This document shows positions 23,823-32,000 of a DNA stretch of 32,000 bases, one piece after another (positions within the stretch are counted from its first letter, which is position 1; every line of letters starts with the position of its first letter). The notes beneath the pieces were generated by a model, which saw only the letters and a program-made list of their open reading frames with translations, was not told the origin of the DNA and made no database searches. Source of the stretch: Candidatus Jordarchaeales archaeon (GTDB lineage: Archaea; Asgardarchaeota; Jordiarchaeia; Jordiarchaeales; Freyrarchaeaceae); contig JAWAHN010000001.1 of NCBI GenBank assembly GCA_038889235.1, forward strand, positions 1,064,499-1,096,498, given 5' to 3'. The position numbers and the translations under genes were made by a program.

Positions 23823-23915
23823 GGGCCCCTAGCTCAGCCTGGTAGAGCTTAGAGCGCTAAAAGCACCCGGTTTGCACCCGGGAGGCCGCGGGTTCAAATC
23901 CCGCGGGGTCCACCA
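23823..23915 (+). tRNA. tRNA-Ala(UGC) with a D-arm intron and encoded CCA
   Basis: Mature GGGCCCC TA GCTC AGCCTGGTA GAGC A CCCGG TTTGCAC CCGGG AGGCC GCGGG TTCAAAT CCCGC GGGGTCC A CCA; G3.U70 Ala determinant present. Confidence 0.93.
23846..23861 (+). other. tRNA-Ala intron, position 22/23, 16 nt
   Basis: AGCTTAGAGCGCTAAA; BHB with central helix TGGT/GCTA, bulges AG|A and AA|A, inner helix GCT/AGC. Confidence 0.82.
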
Positions 23916-24760
23916 CCTTCTTTTACACCAATAAACCTCCATAACGGGGTAAACCATTTTAGGAAGAAGTGTTTTGCGTAAACTTCCACCAGTCCTGGAA
24001 AGTACTTAGCTAGGATCCTTCTCACCTTGGAGGAAAGTTTTCTGCCCTGCGGCTCGTAGAACGCTTTAAGCTTCATGCTTAACTCAACGGAGTAGAGTTT
24101 TATTCCAAGCTTCCTGAAGCGCTCCACGAGCCCGGTGAACGTCGGCTGGTAGGGGACGTTGTCGTGCACCGCTCTTCTAGCCGCTCTAACGTACGCGTCA
24201 GCCAGCTTCTTTGGCATGAGTGATTGAAGGGGGAGGCCGTAGTGTCCGTCTCTGGCGACAATTAAGGGTGCAATCCTATTAGGGCAAGTTACGTAAAGGA
24301 TCCCGCCGCGTTTAAGGGTTCTACTTATTTCTTCAGAGCATTTCCCAGCCTCCTTCACGTGTTCTATCACGTCATTGCATATTACTAGGTCGAACACTTC
24401 GTCTCTAAAGGGCATACTAGTCCCACTTGCCAGTATGGTGTCCACCTCTACACCGTTATCCTTCGCCCAGGAACGCGCAATTCTGGGATAGTGTTTCTCC
24501 ACGTCTAAGCCGACCACCCTAGCGCCCTTAAGGGAGAACGCTATCGAAATACCTCCTGAGCCGAGGCCCAAATCGAGTGCCAGCCTACCCTTAACGCGAA
24601 TGCCTGCATAGCTAAGCAGCCCTATTATCTCGTTCCCCCTCTCCACTCCCCTGAAAGTATATTCGGTGTACGGCCGGTAGAGGAAGTGCTCCTTAGGGAG
24701 GAAGGGCGTCACAAATTCTTCCCATAATTTCATGGTTTCCTCGCTAACTTTGATCTTCAT
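23894..24760 (-). CDS. Class I SAM-dependent methyltransferase
   Basis: LDLGLGSGG motif I, VVGLDV, PFRDEVFDLVICNDVIEHV, LKRGGILYVTCPN. Its stop lies inside the tRNA-Ala T-loop on the opposite strand. Confidence 0.85.
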   Translation of the reverse strand: MKIKVSEETMKLWEEFVTPFLPKEHFLYRPYTEYTFRGVERGNEIIGLLSYAGIRVKGRLALDLGLGSGGISIAFSLKGARVVGLDVEKHYPRIARSWAKDNGVEVDTILASGTSMPFRDEVFDLVICNDVIEHVKEAGKCSEEISRTLKRGGILYVTCPNRIAPLIVARDGHYGLPLQSLMPKKLADAYVRAARRAVHDNVPYQPTFTGLVERFRKLGIKLYSVELSMKLKAFYEPQGRKLSSKVRRILAKYFPGLVEVYAKHFFLKWFTPLWRFIGVKEGGGPRGI

Positions 24761-24812
24761 AGCGACCCCCTTTAAGAAGCGTGCTCCTTCAACAATAAAA
24801 AATCTCCGTCCA

Positions 24813-25847
24813 CTAAGCGCTACCTCGAGTGCTACCGCGTGCAACTGGATTCCTGAGCGCCATCCACAGCTCCTCTATAATCTCTTCTCCGACATCAACG
24901 CTTCCCCCCTCCCTGATAATCACCCTACCCCTCTCGGTAACTTCCCCTATTACACTCCATCGGACACCCAGCCCATCGAGCACCTTAGCCGCCTTCTCAA
25001 CATCCTCCCTTGCAACCGTTGCCAATAAGACCCCGCTTGAGATAAGCCTGAGAGGGTTAACCGAAAGCACCTCACATATCCTTCTTGTCTCGTCAGCAAC
25101 AGGGATCTTCCTTTCGTCAACCCGGAACCCTGATCTCGAAGCAATTGAAAGCTCGATTAAGCCTCCTATAACTCCCCCTTCTGTCGGGTCATGCATGGCT
25201 GTCACATTACACCCCTTGCAGAGGGCGAGGGCCTCACGTACCACGCTCAATTCCTTTGAAAACACCTTAGCCCTCTCAAGTAAATCCACACCCAGAACCT
25301 CGCGTAGCTCATCATACCTTTCCCGCGCAAGGATGGAAGCCCCCTCAAGCCCTGCATGCTTGGTAACGATGATCACGTCACCAGGCTTAGCGCCACCCGT
25401 AGTCACAACTTTACCCCTTTCAGCCTCACCAACCATCGTACCGCAGACTATCGGTTGCTCCAGGTAAGGGGTAACCTCAGTGTGTCCGCCAACTATAGAG
25501 ACCCCAAGTTCCCTAGCCGCAACATCAGCCCCTTGCATAATCTCCTCAAGCAGCTCCTCATCAGCCCCCCTTGGGAGAAGTACGGTTAAAGTTAGAAAGA
25601 GCGGCGTAGCCCCCCTGACGGCGATGTCGTTAGCGTTAACATGAACAGCGTACCATCCGACATCCATACTGGCCCCCGTTATAGGGTCAGAAGATATAAC
25701 CATAACTCTGTCGCCCGCATCAATAACGGCCGCATCCTCTCCAACAGCGGGTCCAAGAACCACACGCTTGCTCTCAGCTCCACGATACCTGAAAACAACT
25801 CTCTCCAAGACATCAATTGGAACCTTACCGATGGGAAGAACATTCAA
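24813..25847 (-). CDS. AIR synthase-related protein (PurM/HypE/ThiL superfamily)
   Basis: GPAVGEDAAV, SSDPITG, VNANDIAVRGA, IVGGHTE, AKPGDVIIVTK, AMHDPTEGG, PLRLISSG. Confidence 0.85.
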   Translation of the reverse strand: MNVLPIGKVPIDVLERVVFRYRGAESKRVVLGPAVGEDAAVIDAGDRVMVISSDPITGASMDVGWYAVHVNANDIAVRGATPLFLTLTVLLPRGADEELLEEIMQGADVAARELGVSIVGGHTEVTPYLEQPIVCGTMVGEAERGKVVTTGGAKPGDVIIVTKHAGLEGASILARERYDELREVLGVDLLERAKVFSKELSVVREALALCKGCNVTAMHDPTEGGVIGGLIELSIASRSGFRVDERKIPVADETRRICEVLSVNPLRLISSGVLLATVAREDVEKAAKVLDGLGVRWSVIGEVTERGRVIIREGGSVDVGEEIIEELWMALRNPVARGSTRGSA

Positions 25848-25940
25848 CCCTAAAACCCTCCGGCTGCAAAAATAGTCTCGTATCGAAAGCTTTTAAAACT
25901 AAACATATAAACTTAAATACTGAGCGACCGTGGTCTAGCC

Positions 25941-25956
25941 AACTCTGGCTCTAGAA
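25941..25956 (+). other. tRNA-Gly intron 1, D-loop position about 17/17a, 16 nt
   Basis: AACTCTGGCTCTAGAA; perfect central helix CTAG/CTAG, bulges CC|A and AA|T. Confidence 0.85.
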
Positions 25957-25994
25957 TGGTCTAGGACCCAGGCCCCCCAAGCCTGTGACCCGGG

Positions 25995-26014
25995 AGGCAC
26001 ATGAAGCCCGGGAA
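25995..26014 (+). other. tRNA-Gly intron 2, position 53/54, 20 nt
   Basis: AGGCACATGAAGCCCGGGAA; strict BHB with outer TGA/TCA, central CCCG/CGGG, inner GGC/GCC, bulges GG|A and AA|T. Confidence 0.92.
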
Positions 26015-26201
26015 TTCAAATCCCGGCGGTCGCACCACAAATTTTTCCCAACAATTTTTTCTCCACTGAATCCCTGTTTTTGCCATTTAGAGAAATCCTT
26101 ATATTGTTAGATGTCTTTTAGTTCTCGGCACAAGTGTTTTCTTGAAAATTGAAGTGTAGTTAAGTAAACTTCACTGATAATTTGGTGTGATGGTGATTTG
26201 A

Positions 26202-27203
26202 TTGGATGCTGTCTGTGTGAGGACGCCTGCCCGCCTCCATTTTACCTTAATAGATTTGAACGGTTCTCTTGGTAGAGTGGATGGTGGGATAGGCGTTGCA
26301 ATAGATAGACCTAACGTTGTTTTGAGGGCAACTTTGTCTGATAGTTTTGAAGTGTACGGGCAGAAAAGGGATCTAGTTGAAGAGATACTCTGGAGAGTAG
26401 CTAGGACCTTTAACATTAACCCGAGGGTTAAAGTGGAGGTCTTAAAGATCATCCCGGAACATGTTGGTTTGGGCTCTAAAACTCAGCTTTCGCTCGCAGT
26501 TGCTAAAGCTTTTTCCTTGCTTTTCAACTTGGACTGCAACGTGCGGCGTTTGGCTATGATAACTGGAAGGGGTGGAACGTCAGGTATAGGTGTTGCGGCC
26601 TTCGAAAAGGGGGGCTTTATCCTAGACGGGGGGCATAGCTTCGGGAAGGGGAAGCAGAAAGAGAAGTTTCTCCCCTCATCAGCATCCACTGCCCCGCCGG
26701 CACCAGTGCTGGTGAGGTACGACATGCCAGAGGACTGGCTTTTCGTGGTGGCAATTCCAGCAGTGGAGAAGGGGGCGCACGGCACTAAGGAAGTGAGTAT
26801 TTTCGAGAAGTTTTGCCCCATTCCGAGGGACGAAGTGGAAGCTATTTGCCGCCTCGTTTTAATGAAAATACTCCCTGCGGTAGTTGAAAGAGACTTGTCG
26901 TCTTTCGGCGAGGGGTTGACTGAGGTCCAAAAGCTTGGTTTCAAAAAACTTGAAATCTCACTTCAACACCCGATAGTAAGAGAGCTCATTCAGGCGATGT
27001 TGAAATGGGGGGCTGCCGGAGCAGGAATGAGCTCATTTGGCCCCGCAGTTTTCGGTGTTGTCGAGGGAAAAAGAGCTGCAGAGTCCCTACTTTCGGAGGT
27101 TGAAAAATACCTGGCGCCTATAGGCGGAGAGTGCTTCATAGCTAAGGTTAATAATACTGGAGCCCAAGTTTCCAGAGAGGCGGTTATAGCTGTTCAAAGT
27201 TGA
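26202..27203 (+). CDS. mptG: beta-ribofuranosylaminobenzene 5'-phosphate (beta-RFAP) synthase, GHMP family
   Basis: TPARLHFTLIDLNGSLGRVDGGIG, HVGLGSKTQL, GRGGTSGIG, FILDGGH, GAGMSSFGP. Confidence 0.9.
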   Translation: MDAVCVRTPARLHFTLIDLNGSLGRVDGGIGVAIDRPNVVLRATLSDSFEVYGQKRDLVEEILWRVARTFNINPRVKVEVLKIIPEHVGLGSKTQLSLAVAKAFSLLFNLDCNVRRLAMITGRGGTSGIGVAAFEKGGFILDGGHSFGKGKQKEKFLPSSASTAPPAPVLVRYDMPEDWLFVVAIPAVEKGAHGTKEVSIFEKFCPIPRDEVEAICRLVLMKILPAVVERDLSSFGEGLTEVQKLGFKKLEISLQHPIVRELIQAMLKWGAAGAGMSSFGPAVFGVVEGKRAAESLLSEVEKYLAPIGGECFIAKVNNTGAQVSREAVIAVQS

Positions 27204-27234
27204 AGTCTTCCATTGCCTTCCCGGGGGAAAGCTG

Positions 27235-28314
27235 TTGGTTCGCGTGTGTGGCATAGATCCGGGTACTGGTTCGTGGGATATCGTCGGCCTAGATGATGAA
27301 GACTTGGTTCTGGACACTTCAATACCTACCAGAGAGGTTTTGGAGAACCCTTCCCGCATTGTGAAGATTGTCAAGTCAATGGGCTCATTGGATTTGCTCG
27401 TAGCCCCGAGCGGCTACGGTCTGCCACTCGTAAAGCTCAGTGAGCTAAACGAAAAACACTTTTTTCTCCTAACGCTGAAAAAGGAGAGGGAGACACAAGT
27501 CGTAGGGTTGGAGCAGGTTTTGCGTCTTCTAATAAATGAAGGCTTTGAAGGCTACGTTATACCTGGAGTTAAACATCTCCCGTCCATCCCACCCCACAGG
27601 AAAGTTAACAAGATAGATATGGGGACATCCGACAAGCTTTGCAGCGTAGCTCTAGCCCTCTGGGAGTCCGCTAACGACAACAATGCAGACTATAGTGACA
27701 TCTCGTTTATCCTGGTGGAAATGGGGGGAGGGTTTACCTCAGTAATAGGGGTAGAACGGGGAAAAATAGTGGACGCCATAGGAGGAGCTGAAGGGTGTAT
27801 GGGCTTCATGGCGTGTGGCTGCATGGACGCAGAAGTAGCATACTTGCTGGGCGGCTTTGAAAAAAAGCTGATCTATACCGGTGGGGCAGTCTACATAGCT
27901 GGATACGAAGGAATCACCCCTGAAGAGTTTGCCCTCATGGCGGACAGGGATGAACGCTTCAAGCTCGCTTGGGACGCCCTTATCGAGGGAACGGTGAAAG
28001 ACGTGATGTCTGTGAGCGCCTCATTAGAGCACTTCGACACAATACTTCTTTCAGGACGCCTCTCAAGGGTCGAAAAGATCAGAAACGAGTTGGAAAAGCG
28101 TCTCTCACGTTTCGCTCCAACGCGGAGAGTTAGGGGCTTCGCTAGAATAGCCAAGGAAGCAGCCCAGGGCGCCGCGCTCATAGCTAACGGGTTAGCGGGA
28201 GGAAGCTGCGAGCCCCTTGTTGAGAGCCTAGGAATAAGAAAGGCTAGTGGTTCCGTGTTGGACTACGTTTACTTTGACAAGATACGCGAGCTGAGGAGGA
28301 AGCTTGGTGCTTAG
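27235..28314 (+). CDS. DUF1464-type ASKHA-fold (sugar/acetate kinase-like) protein
   Basis: GIDPGTGSWD phosphate-1 motif, APSGYG, KIDMGTSDK, LVEMGGGFT, VDAIGG, ILLSGR, KEAAQGAA. Confidence 0.8.
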   Translation: MVRVCGIDPGTGSWDIVGLDDEDLVLDTSIPTREVLENPSRIVKIVKSMGSLDLLVAPSGYGLPLVKLSELNEKHFFLLTLKKERETQVVGLEQVLRLLINEGFEGYVIPGVKHLPSIPPHRKVNKIDMGTSDKLCSVALALWESANDNNADYSDISFILVEMGGGFTSVIGVERGKIVDAIGGAEGCMGFMACGCMDAEVAYLLGGFEKKLIYTGGAVYIAGYEGITPEEFALMADRDERFKLAWDALIEGTVKDVMSVSASLEHFDTILLSGRLSRVEKIRNELEKRLSRFAPTRRVRGFARIAKEAAQGAALIANGLAGGSCEPLVESLGIRKASGSVLDYVYFDKIRELRRKLGA

Positions 28315-29038
28315 GCTCGCCTGGGGGATTACGGGAGCAGGTCACTTCATGGTGGAAACTTTCGAAGTCTTCCTCCAGTTGAAGAAAAGCTACAACGTCG
28401 CAGTTACCACCTTCCTATCTAAAGCCGGGGAAGAAGTAGCAAGGATGTATGGCGTCTTCGAGAAGCTAAAGGAGATTTCCCCTGGAGGGTATTACCAGGA
28501 GGTTGTACTGGAAAGGGAGGAAGGGGCAAGCTTCCCCAAGGCTGGGAGATTCGCCTCCGGCAAGTACAGTGCCTTCATAGTCTCCCCGGCGACGTCCAAC
28601 ACTGTTGCTAAAATGGCGCTCGGCATCTGCGACACCTTGATCACGACAGCCTTCGCTCAGGCCCTGAAAAACAAAGTGCCAGTTTACATAGTCCCGACAG
28701 ATTACAAAGAGGGCGAAGTCGAGACCACCCTACCAGTAATAGTTGACAGGGATAAGTGCGTTGGTTGCAGCTTCTGCCCTCCAGAAGAGTGTTGCCCTAA
28801 AAGCGCCCTCGTAAGGGTTGAAGGAAAACCCAGCGTGAACTTGTTAAAATGCGTCGGCTGCCTGGCATGCGTTAAAGCTTGCCTTTACGAGGCTGTGGTC
28901 TTCGGTAGGAGAGTGAAAACGTTCGTTCGAAGCGTAGACGTGGAAAACGTCAAGAGGTTGTCAGCAATAGGCGGAGTTCATGTTTTAAGTGATCCCAAGG
29001 AAATAATCCCCCGCCTAAGGAGGGACCTCCAGCTTTGA
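28304..29038 (+). CDS. dmrX: Dihydromethanopterin reductase-like iron-sulfur flavoprotein (DmrX/AfpA family, 2x[4Fe-4S])
   Basis: AWGITGAGH, SPATSNTVAKMALGICDTL, ferredoxin insert CVGCSFCPPEECCP ... CVGCLACVKAC. Confidence 0.8.
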   Translation: MVLRLAWGITGAGHFMVETFEVFLQLKKSYNVAVTTFLSKAGEEVARMYGVFEKLKEISPGGYYQEVVLEREEGASFPKAGRFASGKYSAFIVSPATSNTVAKMALGICDTLITTAFAQALKNKVPVYIVPTDYKEGEVETTLPVIVDRDKCVGCSFCPPEECCPKSALVRVEGKPSVNLLKCVGCLACVKACLYEAVVFGRRVKTFVRSVDVENVKRLSAIGGVHVLSDPKEIIPRLRRDLQL

Positions 29039-30570
29039 GAGTGCTGCTTGTTACAGGCCGTCTCGCCGAAAAGCTAGTTAAGAAATACTGTGAAGGCCTC
29101 GGCCTCGAGGTTGATGTCGCAACAATGCCCGTATCTGTTGCCGCTTTGATCACCCCCCAGATGCTCATAGAGCACCTCAAAGATAAGGTCTCAAAGGAGA
29201 AATACGACGCCATAATAGTTCCGGGACTTATGCGGGGCAGCGTTAGGGTAGTTGAAGCCGCGCTCGGAATCCCTGTTTTTAAGGGAACAAAGTATGCGTG
29301 CGACATACCGTTAATTTTCAAGAACTTCGACCTCCTATCGAAGGAAGAAGCGCTAGACACGGTAATTTCTAGGCTCAGAAGCGACGCATGGAACAGGTTG
29401 GAATCTCTCACGGGCTCAGGCTTCACCATTGGAAGGGAAGGTGTTAAACCCGTCTACGTTGGTGTAGATGGACCGGTAAGGGTGCTCGCAGAGGTCGTTG
29501 ACGCCCCAGCGCTCCCCCGCAACAAAGTGTTGTCGAGAGCAGAGTACTTTTTGAGGTCTGGAGCTGACATGATAGACATAGGAGGAGTGGTGGGAGAGGA
29601 GCACCCCAGCATAATATCTGAGTTGGTGCACTGTGTAAGGGAAAAATTTAAGGTCCCTGTAAGTGTGGACAGCCTAAACCCTGCCGAAATAGAAGCCGCC
29701 GTGGCTGCTGGCGCCGACATGGTTCTCAGCTTAGACTACGGAAACTTCCACGAGGTCAAGCTTCCACCCGACGTAGCAGTAACCGTTCTACCAACTAACG
29801 AGAAGAAAGGGGAGATCCCGAGGGATCCAGCCGAGAGAGCGCGGAAAACGCTTGAAATAGTTGAGAAAGCCAAGAAAGCTGGACTAGTCAAAGTAGTAGC
29901 TGACCCGCTGCTTGAGCCACCCATAACCCCCGGTCTCGTCAATTCCCTTAAATCCTACATCTTTTTCAGGGAAGCTGACACGGTTACACCTCTCCTCTTT
30001 GGAGTTGGAAATGTGACCGAGTTCATTGACGTCGACAGCATAGGGGTAAACGCTCTCCTAACCATGCTGGCACAGGAGCTGGGCGCCGCTATACTCCTAA
30101 CAACTGAGCACAGCATTAAGTGCCGTGGAAGTGTGAGGGAGCTTGACGCCGCAAGGAAAATGGCATACCTAGCGAAGTCCTTGTCTACTCCGCCAAAAGA
30201 CCTTGGTATAGCGTTCTTCGCCGCAAAGAGTAAAAAGGAGTACTTTGTACCTCCAAACGTGGATGGATTGAAAGCAGTGGCTGAGGCGAGAAACGACAGC
30301 TACTCCCCCGACCCCCTCGGCTACTTCACAATATGGGTTGACCACGAAAAAGGCAAGATATTCGTGCTGTACAAAGGCGTCAAGGGGGAAAAGCTTTTCG
30401 TTGGGGAGAGCTCCGAGTACATAGGCAAAGCCATTCTTTCAGAAGGAGTAATAAGCTCGCTGGAGCACGCCGTATACCTCGGCAGGGAGCTTGGAAAGGC
30501 AGAAGCCTGCCTGAAGCTCGGTAAAAGCTACGTTCAAGATCTCGACGTTTTCGGTGATAAAAATGAGTAA
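29035..30570 (+). CDS. Archaeal dihydropteroate-synthase-like protein (N-terminal DUF6513-like, pterin-binding barrel, C-terminal DUF4346-like)
   Basis: LLVTGRLAE, VAALITP, FKGTKYACD, AEVVDAP, GADMIDIG, VSVDSLN, ADPLLEP, FGVGNVTEFIDVDS, LTTEHS, DPLGYFTI, HAVYLGRELGKAE. Confidence 0.85.
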   Translation: MRVLLVTGRLAEKLVKKYCEGLGLEVDVATMPVSVAALITPQMLIEHLKDKVSKEKYDAIIVPGLMRGSVRVVEAALGIPVFKGTKYACDIPLIFKNFDLLSKEEALDTVISRLRSDAWNRLESLTGSGFTIGREGVKPVYVGVDGPVRVLAEVVDAPALPRNKVLSRAEYFLRSGADMIDIGGVVGEEHPSIISELVHCVREKFKVPVSVDSLNPAEIEAAVAAGADMVLSLDYGNFHEVKLPPDVAVTVLPTNEKKGEIPRDPAERARKTLEIVEKAKKAGLVKVVADPLLEPPITPGLVNSLKSYIFFREADTVTPLLFGVGNVTEFIDVDSIGVNALLTMLAQELGAAILLTTEHSIKCRGSVRELDAARKMAYLAKSLSTPPKDLGIAFFAAKSKKEYFVPPNVDGLKAVAEARNDSYSPDPLGYFTIWVDHEKGKIFVLYKGVKGEKLFVGESSEYIGKAILSEGVISSLEHAVYLGRELGKAEACLKLGKSYVQDLDVFGDKNE

Positions 30571-31516
30571 CCTACCGGACGTTCAAAGCGAGAAACCCAA
30601 AATACTCCTCTCACTAGACGAGGTAGGAGTAACGGGTCTCGTGAAAAGGGTTCGGATAGTTAAAGGGGGAAGCGAGATATTTTTAACGCCAAAAATTTCT
30701 GCATTCATAAATCTCCCCGCATGGCAGAGAGGGGTGCATCTTTCAAGAAGTAGTGAAACAATTGAAAGTGTGGTTGAGGACATAGCTTACTCCCCAGTTA
30801 GAAGCTTCGAGGAGCTTTGTAGAAAGATGCTAACGGTCCTCTTGGAAAAACATGACTACGCTGACAGGGCGAGAGTGCTCTTGGAAGGACTTGTAGTTCT
30901 CGACGTGAGGGCTGGCGAGAGTGAAGTTAAGCGTCAAAAAGCTTACAACGTACGTGTCGAAGGCGTAGCCTCGCGGAGCAGGGAGGGAATCGAAACCAGG
31001 GTTTTCCTAGGAGTGGAGGTTGAGGGGATAATTGCTTGCCCTTGCGCTCAGGAACTTATAAGAAACTACGCGGAAAGCATGATTAAAAGCAGGGCTGAAG
31101 AGCTCTCACTAGACGAACCTGTGATACACAAGATCCTAGATTTGGTTCCCCTCGCATCTCACAGTCAGCGCTGTAAAGGTGCGCTTATAGTGGAGGTGAA
31201 AGACAACAGCGTAGACCTCTTCGAGCTAATTAGAGTGGTCGAGGACTCGATGAGCGGCACGATATATGACGTCTTAAAGAGGCCAGACGAAGCTAGCCTC
31301 GTAAGGCTCGTTCACTTAAACCCGCTTTTCGTCGAGGATGTCGCGAGACTAATAATACTAAACGCCCTGACAAGGCTTAAACAGCTCTCCGACGACGACG
31401 TTTTAGAGGTCAGAGTTGAAAGCATGGAGTCCGTACACCCTCATAACGCTGTGGCATTCAGGAGAGCCAAAGTCGGGGAACTTAAGAAGGAGCTGCAGGC
31501 TGGTTGTGTAGATTGA
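30563..31516 (+). CDS. mptA: GTP cyclohydrolase MptA (FolE2 / GTP cyclohydrolase IV family)
   Basis: LPDVQ, LDEVGV, GVHLSR, IACPCAQ, SHSQR, LKRPDE, NPLFVEDVAR, ESMESVHPHNA. Confidence 0.9.
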   Translation: MSNLPDVQSEKPKILLSLDEVGVTGLVKRVRIVKGGSEIFLTPKISAFINLPAWQRGVHLSRSSETIESVVEDIAYSPVRSFEELCRKMLTVLLEKHDYADRARVLLEGLVVLDVRAGESEVKRQKAYNVRVEGVASRSREGIETRVFLGVEVEGIIACPCAQELIRNYAESMIKSRAEELSLDEPVIHKILDLVPLASHSQRCKGALIVEVKDNSVDLFELIRVVEDSMSGTIYDVLKRPDEASLVRLVHLNPLFVEDVARLIILNALTRLKQLSDDDVLEVRVESMESVHPHNAVAFRRAKVGELKKELQAGCVD

Positions 31517-32000
31517 TCGTAGAAGGCTTCTTTGTTGAAGACGTCAATGGGTTTATATTCGACGTTAAAGGTTTGCTTCATCCACCGGATAGGATTATAG
31601 CTTACTTGCGTTATTTCCCCGACTTGGAAGGGGATCGGGAGAGAAGGGGAGTAAAGTACCGCAAAGTTTACTCCCTCGCAGAAAGGGACGCTATACTCAA
31701 GGCTAGAAAGCCTAACTACTTATACTTCGACCCGGTCTTCGGCATGTTCCTGGAAGGCGTTCCAAGAAATGAGATAGCTAGAATTTACGACCCCCGCGAA
31801 AAACTCCACCACCTTTTGAGGAGTGAGCGAAACAGCTTGGAGGAAGCCGCAGTCTTCCTCGCGCTCGAGGTAGTTAAGACAGCCAAAATATCTCTCAGCT
31901 CTCTTGGCGTATCTGGCTCAATCCTCGTAGATCTAGCGGGGGAGGGTTCTGACGTCGACATAGTGGTTTTCGGTGAGAAGAACTCTCGGAAGGCTTACGA
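31513..32000 (+). CDS. Predicted nucleotidyltransferase (COG1665-like, Pol-beta fold); 3' end runs off the window
   Basis: Not in the ORF track; TTG overlaps the mptA stop (TTGA). Reads IVEGFFVEDVNGFIFDVKGLLHPPDRIIAYLRY...GVSGSILVDLAGEGSDVDIVVFG, with the GS-x-DxD NTase motif; open to the window end. Confidence 0.78.
   Translation, partial: MIVEGFFVEDVNGFIFDVKGLLHPPDRIIAYLRYFPDLEGDRERRGVKYRKVYSLAERDAILKARKPNYLYFDPVFGMFLEGVPRNEIARIYDPREKLHHLLRSERNSLEEAAVFLALEVVKTAKISLSSLGVSGSILVDLAGEGSDVDIVVFGEKNSRKAY

Follow-up and report, generated by a model that had tools for sequence, protein, structure and literature searches.

An H4MPT-type biosynthesis operon of a Jordarchaeales archaeon points to DUF1464 and a nucleotidyltransferase family as further members of the pathway

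We analysed a stretch of 32,000 nucleotides from a Candidatus Jordarchaeales archaeon (assembly GCA_038889235.1, contig JAWAHN010000001.1, positions 1,064,499 to 1,096,498), hereafter referred to as the window (G000:C1:1064499-1096498), which carries genes for the biosynthesis of tetrahydromethanopterin (H4MPT) at its right end. These genes form a seven-gene, largely translationally coupled operon, mptG-DUF1464-dmrX-DHPS-like-mptA-NT1-NT2, in which DHPS-like denotes a dihydropteroate-synthase-like gene and NT1 and NT2 are paralogous genes for nucleotidyltransferases (NT). The operon and its relatives in other genomes point to two conserved families of the H4MPT pathway, DUF1464 and the NT family, both of them candidates that can be tested by enzymology and genetics. 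The best explanation overall, in which we place moderate confidence, is a coupled operon in which DUF1464 belongs to a module with MptG and the DHPS-like enzyme, and in which the NT proteins and a CitG-like enzyme act on the tail of the cofactor. Methanogenesis, anaerobic methane oxidation, archaeal acetogenesis and bacterial formaldehyde oxidation all depend on H4MPT. For aniline formation, ribose-to-ribitol conversion, ribosyl phosphate addition and hydroxyglutarate attachment, we know of no enzyme assigned since the biochemical work of the 1990s that traced the pathway.

The segment 26202-32000 of the window contains six open reading frames (ORFs) in one direction, and the seventh gene of the operon lies just beyond the window end. 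The ORFs were assigned to families with Pfam and NCBIfam profiles and their curated cut-offs. Coordinates refer to the window unless they carry a prefix such as L002.

26202..27203, plus strand: mptG, beta-ribofuranosylaminobenzene 5'-phosphate synthase of the GHMP fold (NF040726 equivalog, 381 bits, cut-off 328; TIGR00144, 351 bits)
27235..28314, plus strand: DUF1464 protein, ASKHA-fold, kinase-like (PF07318, 334 bits)
28304..29038, plus strand: dmrX, dihydromethanopterin reductase (TIGR02700, 299.5 bits, cut-off 251.35)
29035..30570, plus strand: MJ0107-type DHPS-like gene (TIGR00284, 376 bits, cut-off 256.65, over residues 1-505)
30554..31516, plus strand, probable start ATG 30563: mptA, Fe(II)-dependent GTP cyclohydrolase (TIGR00294, 294.6 bits, cut-off 220; PF02649)
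31504..32000, plus strand, cut by the window end, full gene L002:6003-7019: NT1, pol-beta-type nucleotidyltransferase (PF01909)
L002:7024-8049, plus strand: NT2, paralog of NT1, 341 amino acids, after a 4-nt gap

The mptG and DUF1464 genes are separated by 31 nt, and the remaining four junctions within the window overlap by 11, 4, 17 and 13 nt if the longest ORFs are used. If alternative in-frame starts are used instead, overlaps of 8, 8 and 4 nt persist at three of these junctions and the dmrX/DHPS-like junction turns into a 2-nt gap with GTG 29041. Shine-Dalgarno-like GGAGG or GGTGA motifs are located 5-13 nt before the preferred starts; the TTG start of mptG is preceded by GGTGA at 6 nt and ATG 30563 of mptA by GGTGAT at 5 nt. 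A first-pass annotation of the window had listed mptG, DUF1464-like, dmrX-like, DHPS-like, mptA and nucleotidyltransferase genes, with overlapping stop and start codons at four of five junctions, and the family scores and overlaps given above agree with it on both counts. Extension of the contig to the right, which it had proposed as a check, revealed the complete NT1 gene, NT2 and then a convergent CooT-like gene that marks the end of the operon. The nucleotidyltransferase with which the earlier list closed is accordingly confirmed, but as one of a tandem pair of paralogs in a set of seven genes.

As judged from their profile matches, four of the genes (mptG, dmrX, the DHPS-like gene and mptA) are ordinary members of known H4MPT families. 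Residues 6-323 of MptG cover positions 3-327 of the 327 positions in NF040726 and comprise the domains GHMP_kinases_N and GHMP_kinases_C. DmrX combines a flavoprotein domain (PF02441) with a 2x[4Fe-4S] ferredoxin domain (Fer4), and its translation contains two CxxCxxC motifs. The DHPS-like protein has three domains, DUF6513, a Pterin_bind barrel and DUF4346; it belongs to TIGR00284, itself a hypothetical equivalog, and scored only 25.5 bits against the classical FolP model (TIGR01496, cut-off 162.6). MptA scored 136.8 bits against the FolE2 model NF010200, which is below the cut-off of 215. The DUF1464 protein is a full-length member of its family, with residues 6-345 matching positions 1-325 of the 327 in PF07318.

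The loci nearest to this operon are found in metagenome-assembled genomes (MAGs) of Jordarchaeia, with 81-83% identity in DUF1464. The use of H4MPT by Asgard archaea is established, and the host genome contains Mch. No match to McrA was found in this 95%-complete assembly, and McrA was recovered from four Halobacteriota genomes searched alongside. Related Freyarchaeia have been described as H4MPT-Wood-Ljungdahl acetogens without MCR, methyl-coenzyme M reductase (PMC11291895). These results are in line with the earlier description of an H4MPT-type operon in a probable non-methanogen, whereas its description as near-complete was overstated, since mptB, mptD, mptE, DUF447, TIGR03123 and the CitG-like gene are all located outside the operon. 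The first three of these had been suggested as targets for a search of the rest of the genome, and genes of all three types were found. The MptB-type gene (TIGR00295, 221 bits) is on contig 2, a cluster of HisA/F-related, ATP-grasp and TIGR03123 genes is located elsewhere in the host genome, and a DUF447 gene lies about 3 kb from the following cluster.

G000:C1:814049-816616 (L096:6049-8616), minus strand: overlapping three-gene cluster of mptD, a PfkB-family sugar kinase and an MptE-like gene

The PfkB-like kinase beside mptD is 459 amino acids long, has a 160-residue N-terminal extension and is a further candidate in a pterin context.

To place DUF1464 within the pathway, we compared its distribution in 121 evenly drawn Asgard genomes, 121 Thermoproteota genomes and 101 Halobacteriota genomes; the Asgard families are labelled by f-numbers and 26 of them entered the per-family comparison. 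The family has more than 4000 matches, in Asgard, TACK, Altiarchaeia, Methanoperedenaceae and several bacterial phyla. In the Asgard sample, DUF1464 and above-cut-off MptG were each present in 51 genomes and co-occurred in 49, the four discordant genomes being incomplete or containing gene fragments. The DHPS-like gene was present in all 51 DUF1464-positive Asgard genomes. Among the Thermoproteota, 33 of the 35 genomes with DUF1464 also had an MptG-family gene. The first-pass annotation had tied its proposal to co-occurrence of the unassigned genes with mptG and mptA across archaea, and DUF1464 does track MptG in two archaeal phyla.

Gene neighbourhoods were compared at 79 DUF1464 loci, where every ORF was assigned to a cluster and the neighbours that recurred were annotated. 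DUF1464 adjoins MptG in co-directional, convergent and divergent arrangements. At most of the other Asgard loci, the DHPS-like gene follows directly after DUF1464, while in bacteria the order is reversed and the adjacency kept. DUF447 and MptD are recurrent neighbours at the archaeal loci. At about 20 loci from bacterial MAGs (Chloroflexota, Caldisericota, Desulfobacteraceae and Thermoleophilia), DUF1464 is located among genes for Mch, FhcA/B/C/D, MtdB-like, an MptN-like ligase, ATP-grasp_3, MptA, MptG, DmrX, a CitG-like protein and an NT pair. That DUF1464 is a member of the H4MPT-type pathway is therefore well supported, and we hold it to be very probable. Rare fusions of DUF1464 were also seen (P0241-P0244), three with ATP-grasp_3 and one with an AhbD/NirJ-like radical SAM/SPASM protein, the latter possibly a mis-call.

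The AlphaFold model of the DUF1464 protein (mean predicted local distance difference test, pLDDT, 85) adopts an ASKHA fold. Its best matches in the PDB were butyrate kinase 2 and acetate kinases (E-value 1e-14, template modelling (TM) scores 0.62-0.65); across the entries 1x9j, 1saz and 4ijn the E-values ranged from 1e-14 to 1e-11 and the TM scores from 0.57 to 0.65. A likeness to butyrate kinases was also seen in the weak NCBIfam matches, which amounted to 34-39.5 bits against TIGR02707 and NF002834 and were far below the cut-offs of 222-289. Sequence searches of the PDB returned nothing useful for either DUF1464 or NT1. Three motifs were invariant in 13 diverse members, namely D8-P-G10 (phosphate-1), E162/G164 (phosphate-2) and S273-G274 (adenosine). 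By predicted fold and intact predicted nucleotide-binding motifs, DUF1464 is an ATPase or kinase of the ASKHA superfamily. It differs from the acetokinases in having only 14-19% identity to them and in its N-terminal motif DPGT, which is as in sugar kinases and Hsp70.

The gene stands between those for the enzymes that make and use the aryl-C-riboside phosphate, which suggests that its product acts at this point. We propose that DUF1464 may serve as an ATP-dependent phosphotransferase of the MptG/DHPS-like module and act on or beside the aryl-C-riboside phosphate, which would be the product of MptG and the substrate of the DHPS-like enzyme. One option is an ATP-dependent activation of the kind needed in a phenol-to-aniline conversion; White reportedly described in 2011 an ATP- and aspartate-dependent conversion of this type at this point in M. 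jannaschii, with no gene named. Such an activation is offered as the likeliest reaction type for DUF1464, albeit as a tentative hypothesis. Classical methanogens would then use another enzyme for the step, or the step would be unnecessary in them. When DUF1464 and the DHPS-like protein were modelled together as a complex, the score was 0.00, which counts neither for nor against binding.

The tight association with the DHPS-like gene also allows for a different role, in which DUF1464 would be a pterin alcohol kinase that acts on 6-hydroxymethyl-7,8-dihydropterin or its monophosphate and feeds the DHPS-like enzyme, thereby supplementing or replacing MptE. Its kinase fold would suit this role, the adjacency to the DHPS-like gene is the tightest and most widespread of all, in both orders and in both domains, and the two genes co-occur without exception in the Asgard sample. 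Yet the host has an MptE-like gene beside mptD, the control genome of Sulfolobus acidocaldarius likewise contains DUF1464 together with an MptE-like gene, and the distribution of DUF1464 follows MptG rather than MptA. We consider a pterin kinase unlikely and continue with an activating role between MptG and the DHPS-like step. A replacement of MptE or of the TIGR03123 ASKHA protein by DUF1464 was rejected for the host genome because both are present in it.

The second family is represented by NT1, a protein of 338 amino acids, and NT2, which are 33% identical to each other. NT1 is a member of the pol-beta-type nucleotidyltransferases (PF01909, cut-off 21 bits): its full-length sequence scored 24.3 bits and the portion inside the window alone 21.5 bits, whereas NT2 scored 18.8 bits, below the cut-off. 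Homologues are annotated as "predicted nucleotidyltransferases" of Asgard, Bathyarchaeia, Thermofilum, Methanomethylicia and others, and in the protein atlas they fall only into unnamed clusters. Across 29 sequences, drawn from both paralog types, the GS...DxD catalytic motif (G138-S139 and D150-x-D152) did not vary, and both types also keep an N-terminal HP motif and several further invariant residues. The model of NT1 (pLDDT 95) consists of an N-terminal beta domain, a pol-beta nucleotidyltransferase core and a C-terminal oligonucleotide/oligosaccharide-binding (OB) fold. A Foldseek search with NT1 gave no whole-chain match and only matches at the domain level. The core aligned with Pol X, Trf4 and terminal uridylyltransferases (TUTases) at middling Z-scores of 7.3-7.6.

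The NT family was found in 81 of the 121 Asgard genomes. By Asgard family, its presence coincided with that of Mch in 23 of 26 cases, and a CitG-like gene was present in every NT-positive family but one, represented by a single 80%-complete genome, so that NT is nested within the CitG-like distribution. One family had NT without MptA and two had MptA without NT. The idea that NT tracks MptG or MptA was rejected on these grounds and because there are Asgard families with NT pairs but no MptG. The earlier expectation that the unassigned genes track mptG and mptA therefore holds for DUF1464, with respect to MptG and the DHPS-like gene, but not strictly for NT, which tracks Mch and the CitG-like gene.

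The gene neighbourhoods of NT are nonetheless made up of H4MPT genes in distant lineages. The full seven-gene order is kept at Jord-, Frey- and Baldrarchaeial loci, and a Helarchaeota locus has mptA-NT1-NT2 after DUF1464. In an Asgard family without MptG (L097), the NT pair abuts Ftr, with Mch and CitG-like genes within about 12 kb. Three complete Thermoproteota genomes contain contiguous DUF1464, NT and CitG-like genes, with NT in the middle, and at eight bacterial loci NT pairs adjoin MptG, CitG-like or DUF1464 genes. In Halobacteriota, a single NT gene abuts mptA at 6 of the 13 loci examined; four of the genomes with this arrangement were searched for McrA, and each contains it. Co-occurrence and co-localisation with H4MPT genes, as expected from the first-pass annotation, were thus observed for NT in Asgard, Thermoproteota, Halobacteriota and bacteria. 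We conclude that the NT family likely belongs to H4MPT-type cofactor biosynthesis generally, methanogens included, which is well supported by these data, and that the bacterial H4MPT islands with NT were probably acquired by transfer.

Several findings weigh against parts of this explanation. DUF1464 was not found in the controls M. jannaschii and M. acetivorans, both of which have MptG and the DHPS-like gene, and it was present in only 24 of the 101 Halobacteriota genomes, for which reasons it cannot be a universal step of the pathway. The co-occurrence counts overstate independence because genomes within a phylum are related. As to NT, some Asgard families have pairs of these genes but neither MptG nor DUF1464 nor the DHPS-like gene, and in methanogens NT is located beside mptA, in the pterin branch, and not beside the CitG-like gene. 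Moreover, the specific reactions proposed for DUF1464 and for NT were inferred, and each of them should be regarded as tentative.

The patchy occurrence of DUF1464 might instead mean that this protein, and perhaps the duplicated NT pair, serve to make a lineage-specific form of the cofactor in Asgard, TACK and some bacteria, one whose side chain or decoration differs. Both methanogen controls have a working H4MPT pathway in which DUF1464 was not found, whereas the gene was found in S. acidocaldarius, and the folate analogue of Sulfolobus is a modified one other than methanopterin. Halobacteriota have one copy of NT (75 of the 101 genomes), while it comes as a pair in Asgard, in Bathyarchaeia-type genomes and in bacteria. 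On the other hand, a quarter of the sampled Halobacteriota carry DUF1464, one Methanoperedenaceae genome among them, non-orthologous replacement gives the same pattern, and no pterin structure is known for any Asgard archaeon. We judge a cofactor variant to be rather improbable as the explanation for these genes.

For NT, the domain composition raises the question of whether NT1 and NT2 act on RNA, for instance in tRNA modification or repair, and are merely co-transcribed with the pterin genes. A pol-beta core joined to an OB fold of the SSB or anticodon-binding type is typical of nucleic-acid enzymes, and the OB fold of NT1 is most like domains that bind single-stranded DNA or RNA, with Z-scores of 8-8.8 to SSB and to the N-terminal domains of MCM. 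The NT family is also present in genomes without MptG, and a TiaS-TCKD-like gene is located near the operon. Furthermore, the host genome contains a second pair of NT genes.

G000:C1:372772-375595 (L095:6716-9595), minus strand: second NT pair, 25-35% identical to NT1/NT2

This pair overlaps a gene for a PSTK-like kinase, with a match to the L-seryl-tRNA(Sec) kinase model that is below the cut-off (TIGR03574, 192 bits, cut-off 290.5), and the three genes look translationally coupled. The OB fold, the PSTK-like gene coupled to the second pair and the adjacency to mptA in methanogens keep an RNA-directed role alive. However, NT is located beside a variety of H4MPT genes (mptA, MptG, DUF1464, CitG-like, Ftr and Mch) in distant lineages, bacterial islands included, its presence by Asgard family follows Mch and the CitG-like gene, and OB folds bind ligands other than nucleic acids too. 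An RNA substrate is thus unlikely in our estimate, and we prefer a role of NT in the biosynthesis of the cofactor.

The recurrent pairing of NT with a CitG-family gene suggests the logic of CitG and CitX for the tail of the cofactor. The CitG-like gene of the host is located 3.4 kb past NT2.

L002:11413-12360, minus strand: CitG-like gene (PF01874, 268 bits)

Its product is homologous to E. coli CitG, with 24% identity over the full length (E-value 8e-9), and scored 56-73 bits against the equivalogs TIGR03125 and TIGR03132, with cut-offs of about 272-282. Sequence comparison thus places it in the family as a distant paralog, and not as an ortholog, of the enzymes that make the coenzyme A-derived prosthetic group. 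In the proposed scheme, this enzyme and NT1/NT2 would act in turn on the ribosyl-phosphate tail. The CitG-like enzyme would draw on ATP to attach a 5-triphospho-alpha-ribosyl unit; NT would then release pyrophosphate and form a phosphodiester to a terminal alcohol, which in methanopterin is that of 2-hydroxyglutarate. CitX and MdcG act in this way after CitG and MdcB. A scheme of this type would explain why ATP is required and why the tail has an alpha-ribosyl linkage and a phosphodiester.

The comparison with citrate lyase (CitG and CitX) and malonate decarboxylase (MdcB and MdcG) rests on a CitG-family enzyme paired with a nucleotidyl- or phosphoribosyl-transferase, and on a proposed chemistry in which an alpha-ribosyl triphosphate made from ATP is followed by a phosphodiester with release of pyrophosphate. 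The systems differ in that NT has no sequence similarity to CitX and contains extra N-terminal and OB domains, and in that a small hydroxy acid would take the place of the acyl carrier protein as acceptor. Two points speak against the scheme. An alignment of the NT profile with E. coli CitX gave an hhalign probability of 0.2%, that is, no detectable similarity in sequence, and extract work by R. H. White reportedly pointed to phosphoribosyl pyrophosphate (PRPP), and not to ATP, as the source of the ribosyl group in the tail. Were PRPP the donor, the CitG-like half of the model would have to be revised. The scheme is a functional analogy only, and a possible rather than a probable account of the tail step.

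Taken together, DUF1464 may be an ATP-dependent activator between MptG and the DHPS-like step, and NT, a putative heterodimer in Asgard, TACK and bacteria, may be a CitX-like transferase that builds the alpha-ribosyl-phosphate-hydroxyglutarate tail with the CitG-like enzyme. We consider this detailed version possible, though less likely than not; if it is true, two or three long-open steps of the pathway would be closed. The suggestion in the first-pass annotation that the operon nominates genes for missing steps is upheld as far as membership in the pathway is concerned, while the step filled by each gene remains a matter of inference. Another possibility is that the DUF1464 and NT genes are passengers, which owe their position to genome compaction and shared ancestry. 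Gene order is common to related genomes by descent, and only Jord-, Frey- and Baldr-type loci have all seven genes in this order. But the linkage outlasts rearrangement, changes of orientation and inter-domain transfer, and the co-occurrence holds in two phyla, which makes passengers very improbable.

The operon was also compared with H4MPT genes of known systems. As in methanogens, MptG, DmrX, the DHPS-like protein and MptA all score above their cut-offs, and genes of the MptB, MptD and MptE types are found elsewhere in the host. Here, by contrast, the four genes are in a single coupled operon with DUF1464 and two NT genes, in a host in which McrA was not found. In methylotrophs, work by Chistoserdova and Rasche is said to have described H4MPT islands with Orf5/CitG-like, Orf17/COG1548, Orf21/DUF447 and ATP-grasp genes. 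The host resembles these islands in having CitG-like, TIGR03123, DUF447 and ATP-grasp genes, and the bacterial DUF1464 loci resemble them in having Mch, Fhc, MtdB-like and MptN-like genes. To our knowledge, neither DUF1464 nor this NT family is part of the published methylotroph orf set or of the methanogen Mpt set. The papers covered by a full-text search contained no mention of DUF1464 or COG2441 in the context of H4MPT, and no nucleotidyltransferase or CitG-like enzyme tied to methanopterin synthesis.

Five of the Asgard families (f7, f15, f16, f20 and f26; for example G029:C6:119000-142300) contained Mch, CitG-like and NT genes, mostly together with an MptA- or FolE2-type gene (none in f16), and Ftr was seen at one checked locus. 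No MptG, DUF1464 or MJ0107-type DHPS-like gene was found in these five families except in one genome of f7 (G005). In many lineages of Asgard and Thermoproteota, Mch is accompanied by CitG-like and NT genes but not by MptG, DUF1464 or the DHPS-like gene, so that the one-carbon carrier of such MptG-less, Mch-bearing lineages may differ from methanopterin.

The operon is bounded upstream by a tRNA region and divergent genes, and downstream by genes on the minus strand, which include a coiled-coil gene in addition to those listed here.

23894-25847, minus strand, divergent from the operon: class I methyltransferase gene and AIR-synthase/HypE/ThiL-like gene together
24813-25847, minus strand, divergent from the operon: AIR-synthase/HypE/ThiL-like gene
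L002:8052-8369, minus strand: CooT-like gene (CO dehydrogenase nickel chaperone) at the operon end, convergent with NT2, the two stop codons being 2 nt apart
L002:9150-10262, minus strand, about 2.7 kb past the window end: gene for a protein with a TrmB-type helix-turn-helix (HTH) domain and a TiaS-TCKD/methanogenesis-marker-11-like part (TIGR03280, 155 bits, below the cut-off)

The AIR-synthase/HypE-like and methyltransferase genes were rejected as members of the system because their synteny is restricted to the closest Jordarchaeia loci and does not extend to other DUF1464 loci. A tRNA-like sequence is located at 25921-26037, directly upstream of mptG, for which ARAGORN gave no call. The second NT pair of the host lies about 5 kb from the cluster of HisA/F-related, ATP-grasp and TIGR03123 genes. 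The TrmB-HTH/TiaS-TCKD-like gene holds its position downstream of the operon at Jord- and Freyarchaeial loci, and the CooT-like gene also follows the NT pair at Frey-, Baldr- and Helarchaeial loci as well as in the Asgard family without MptG (L097).

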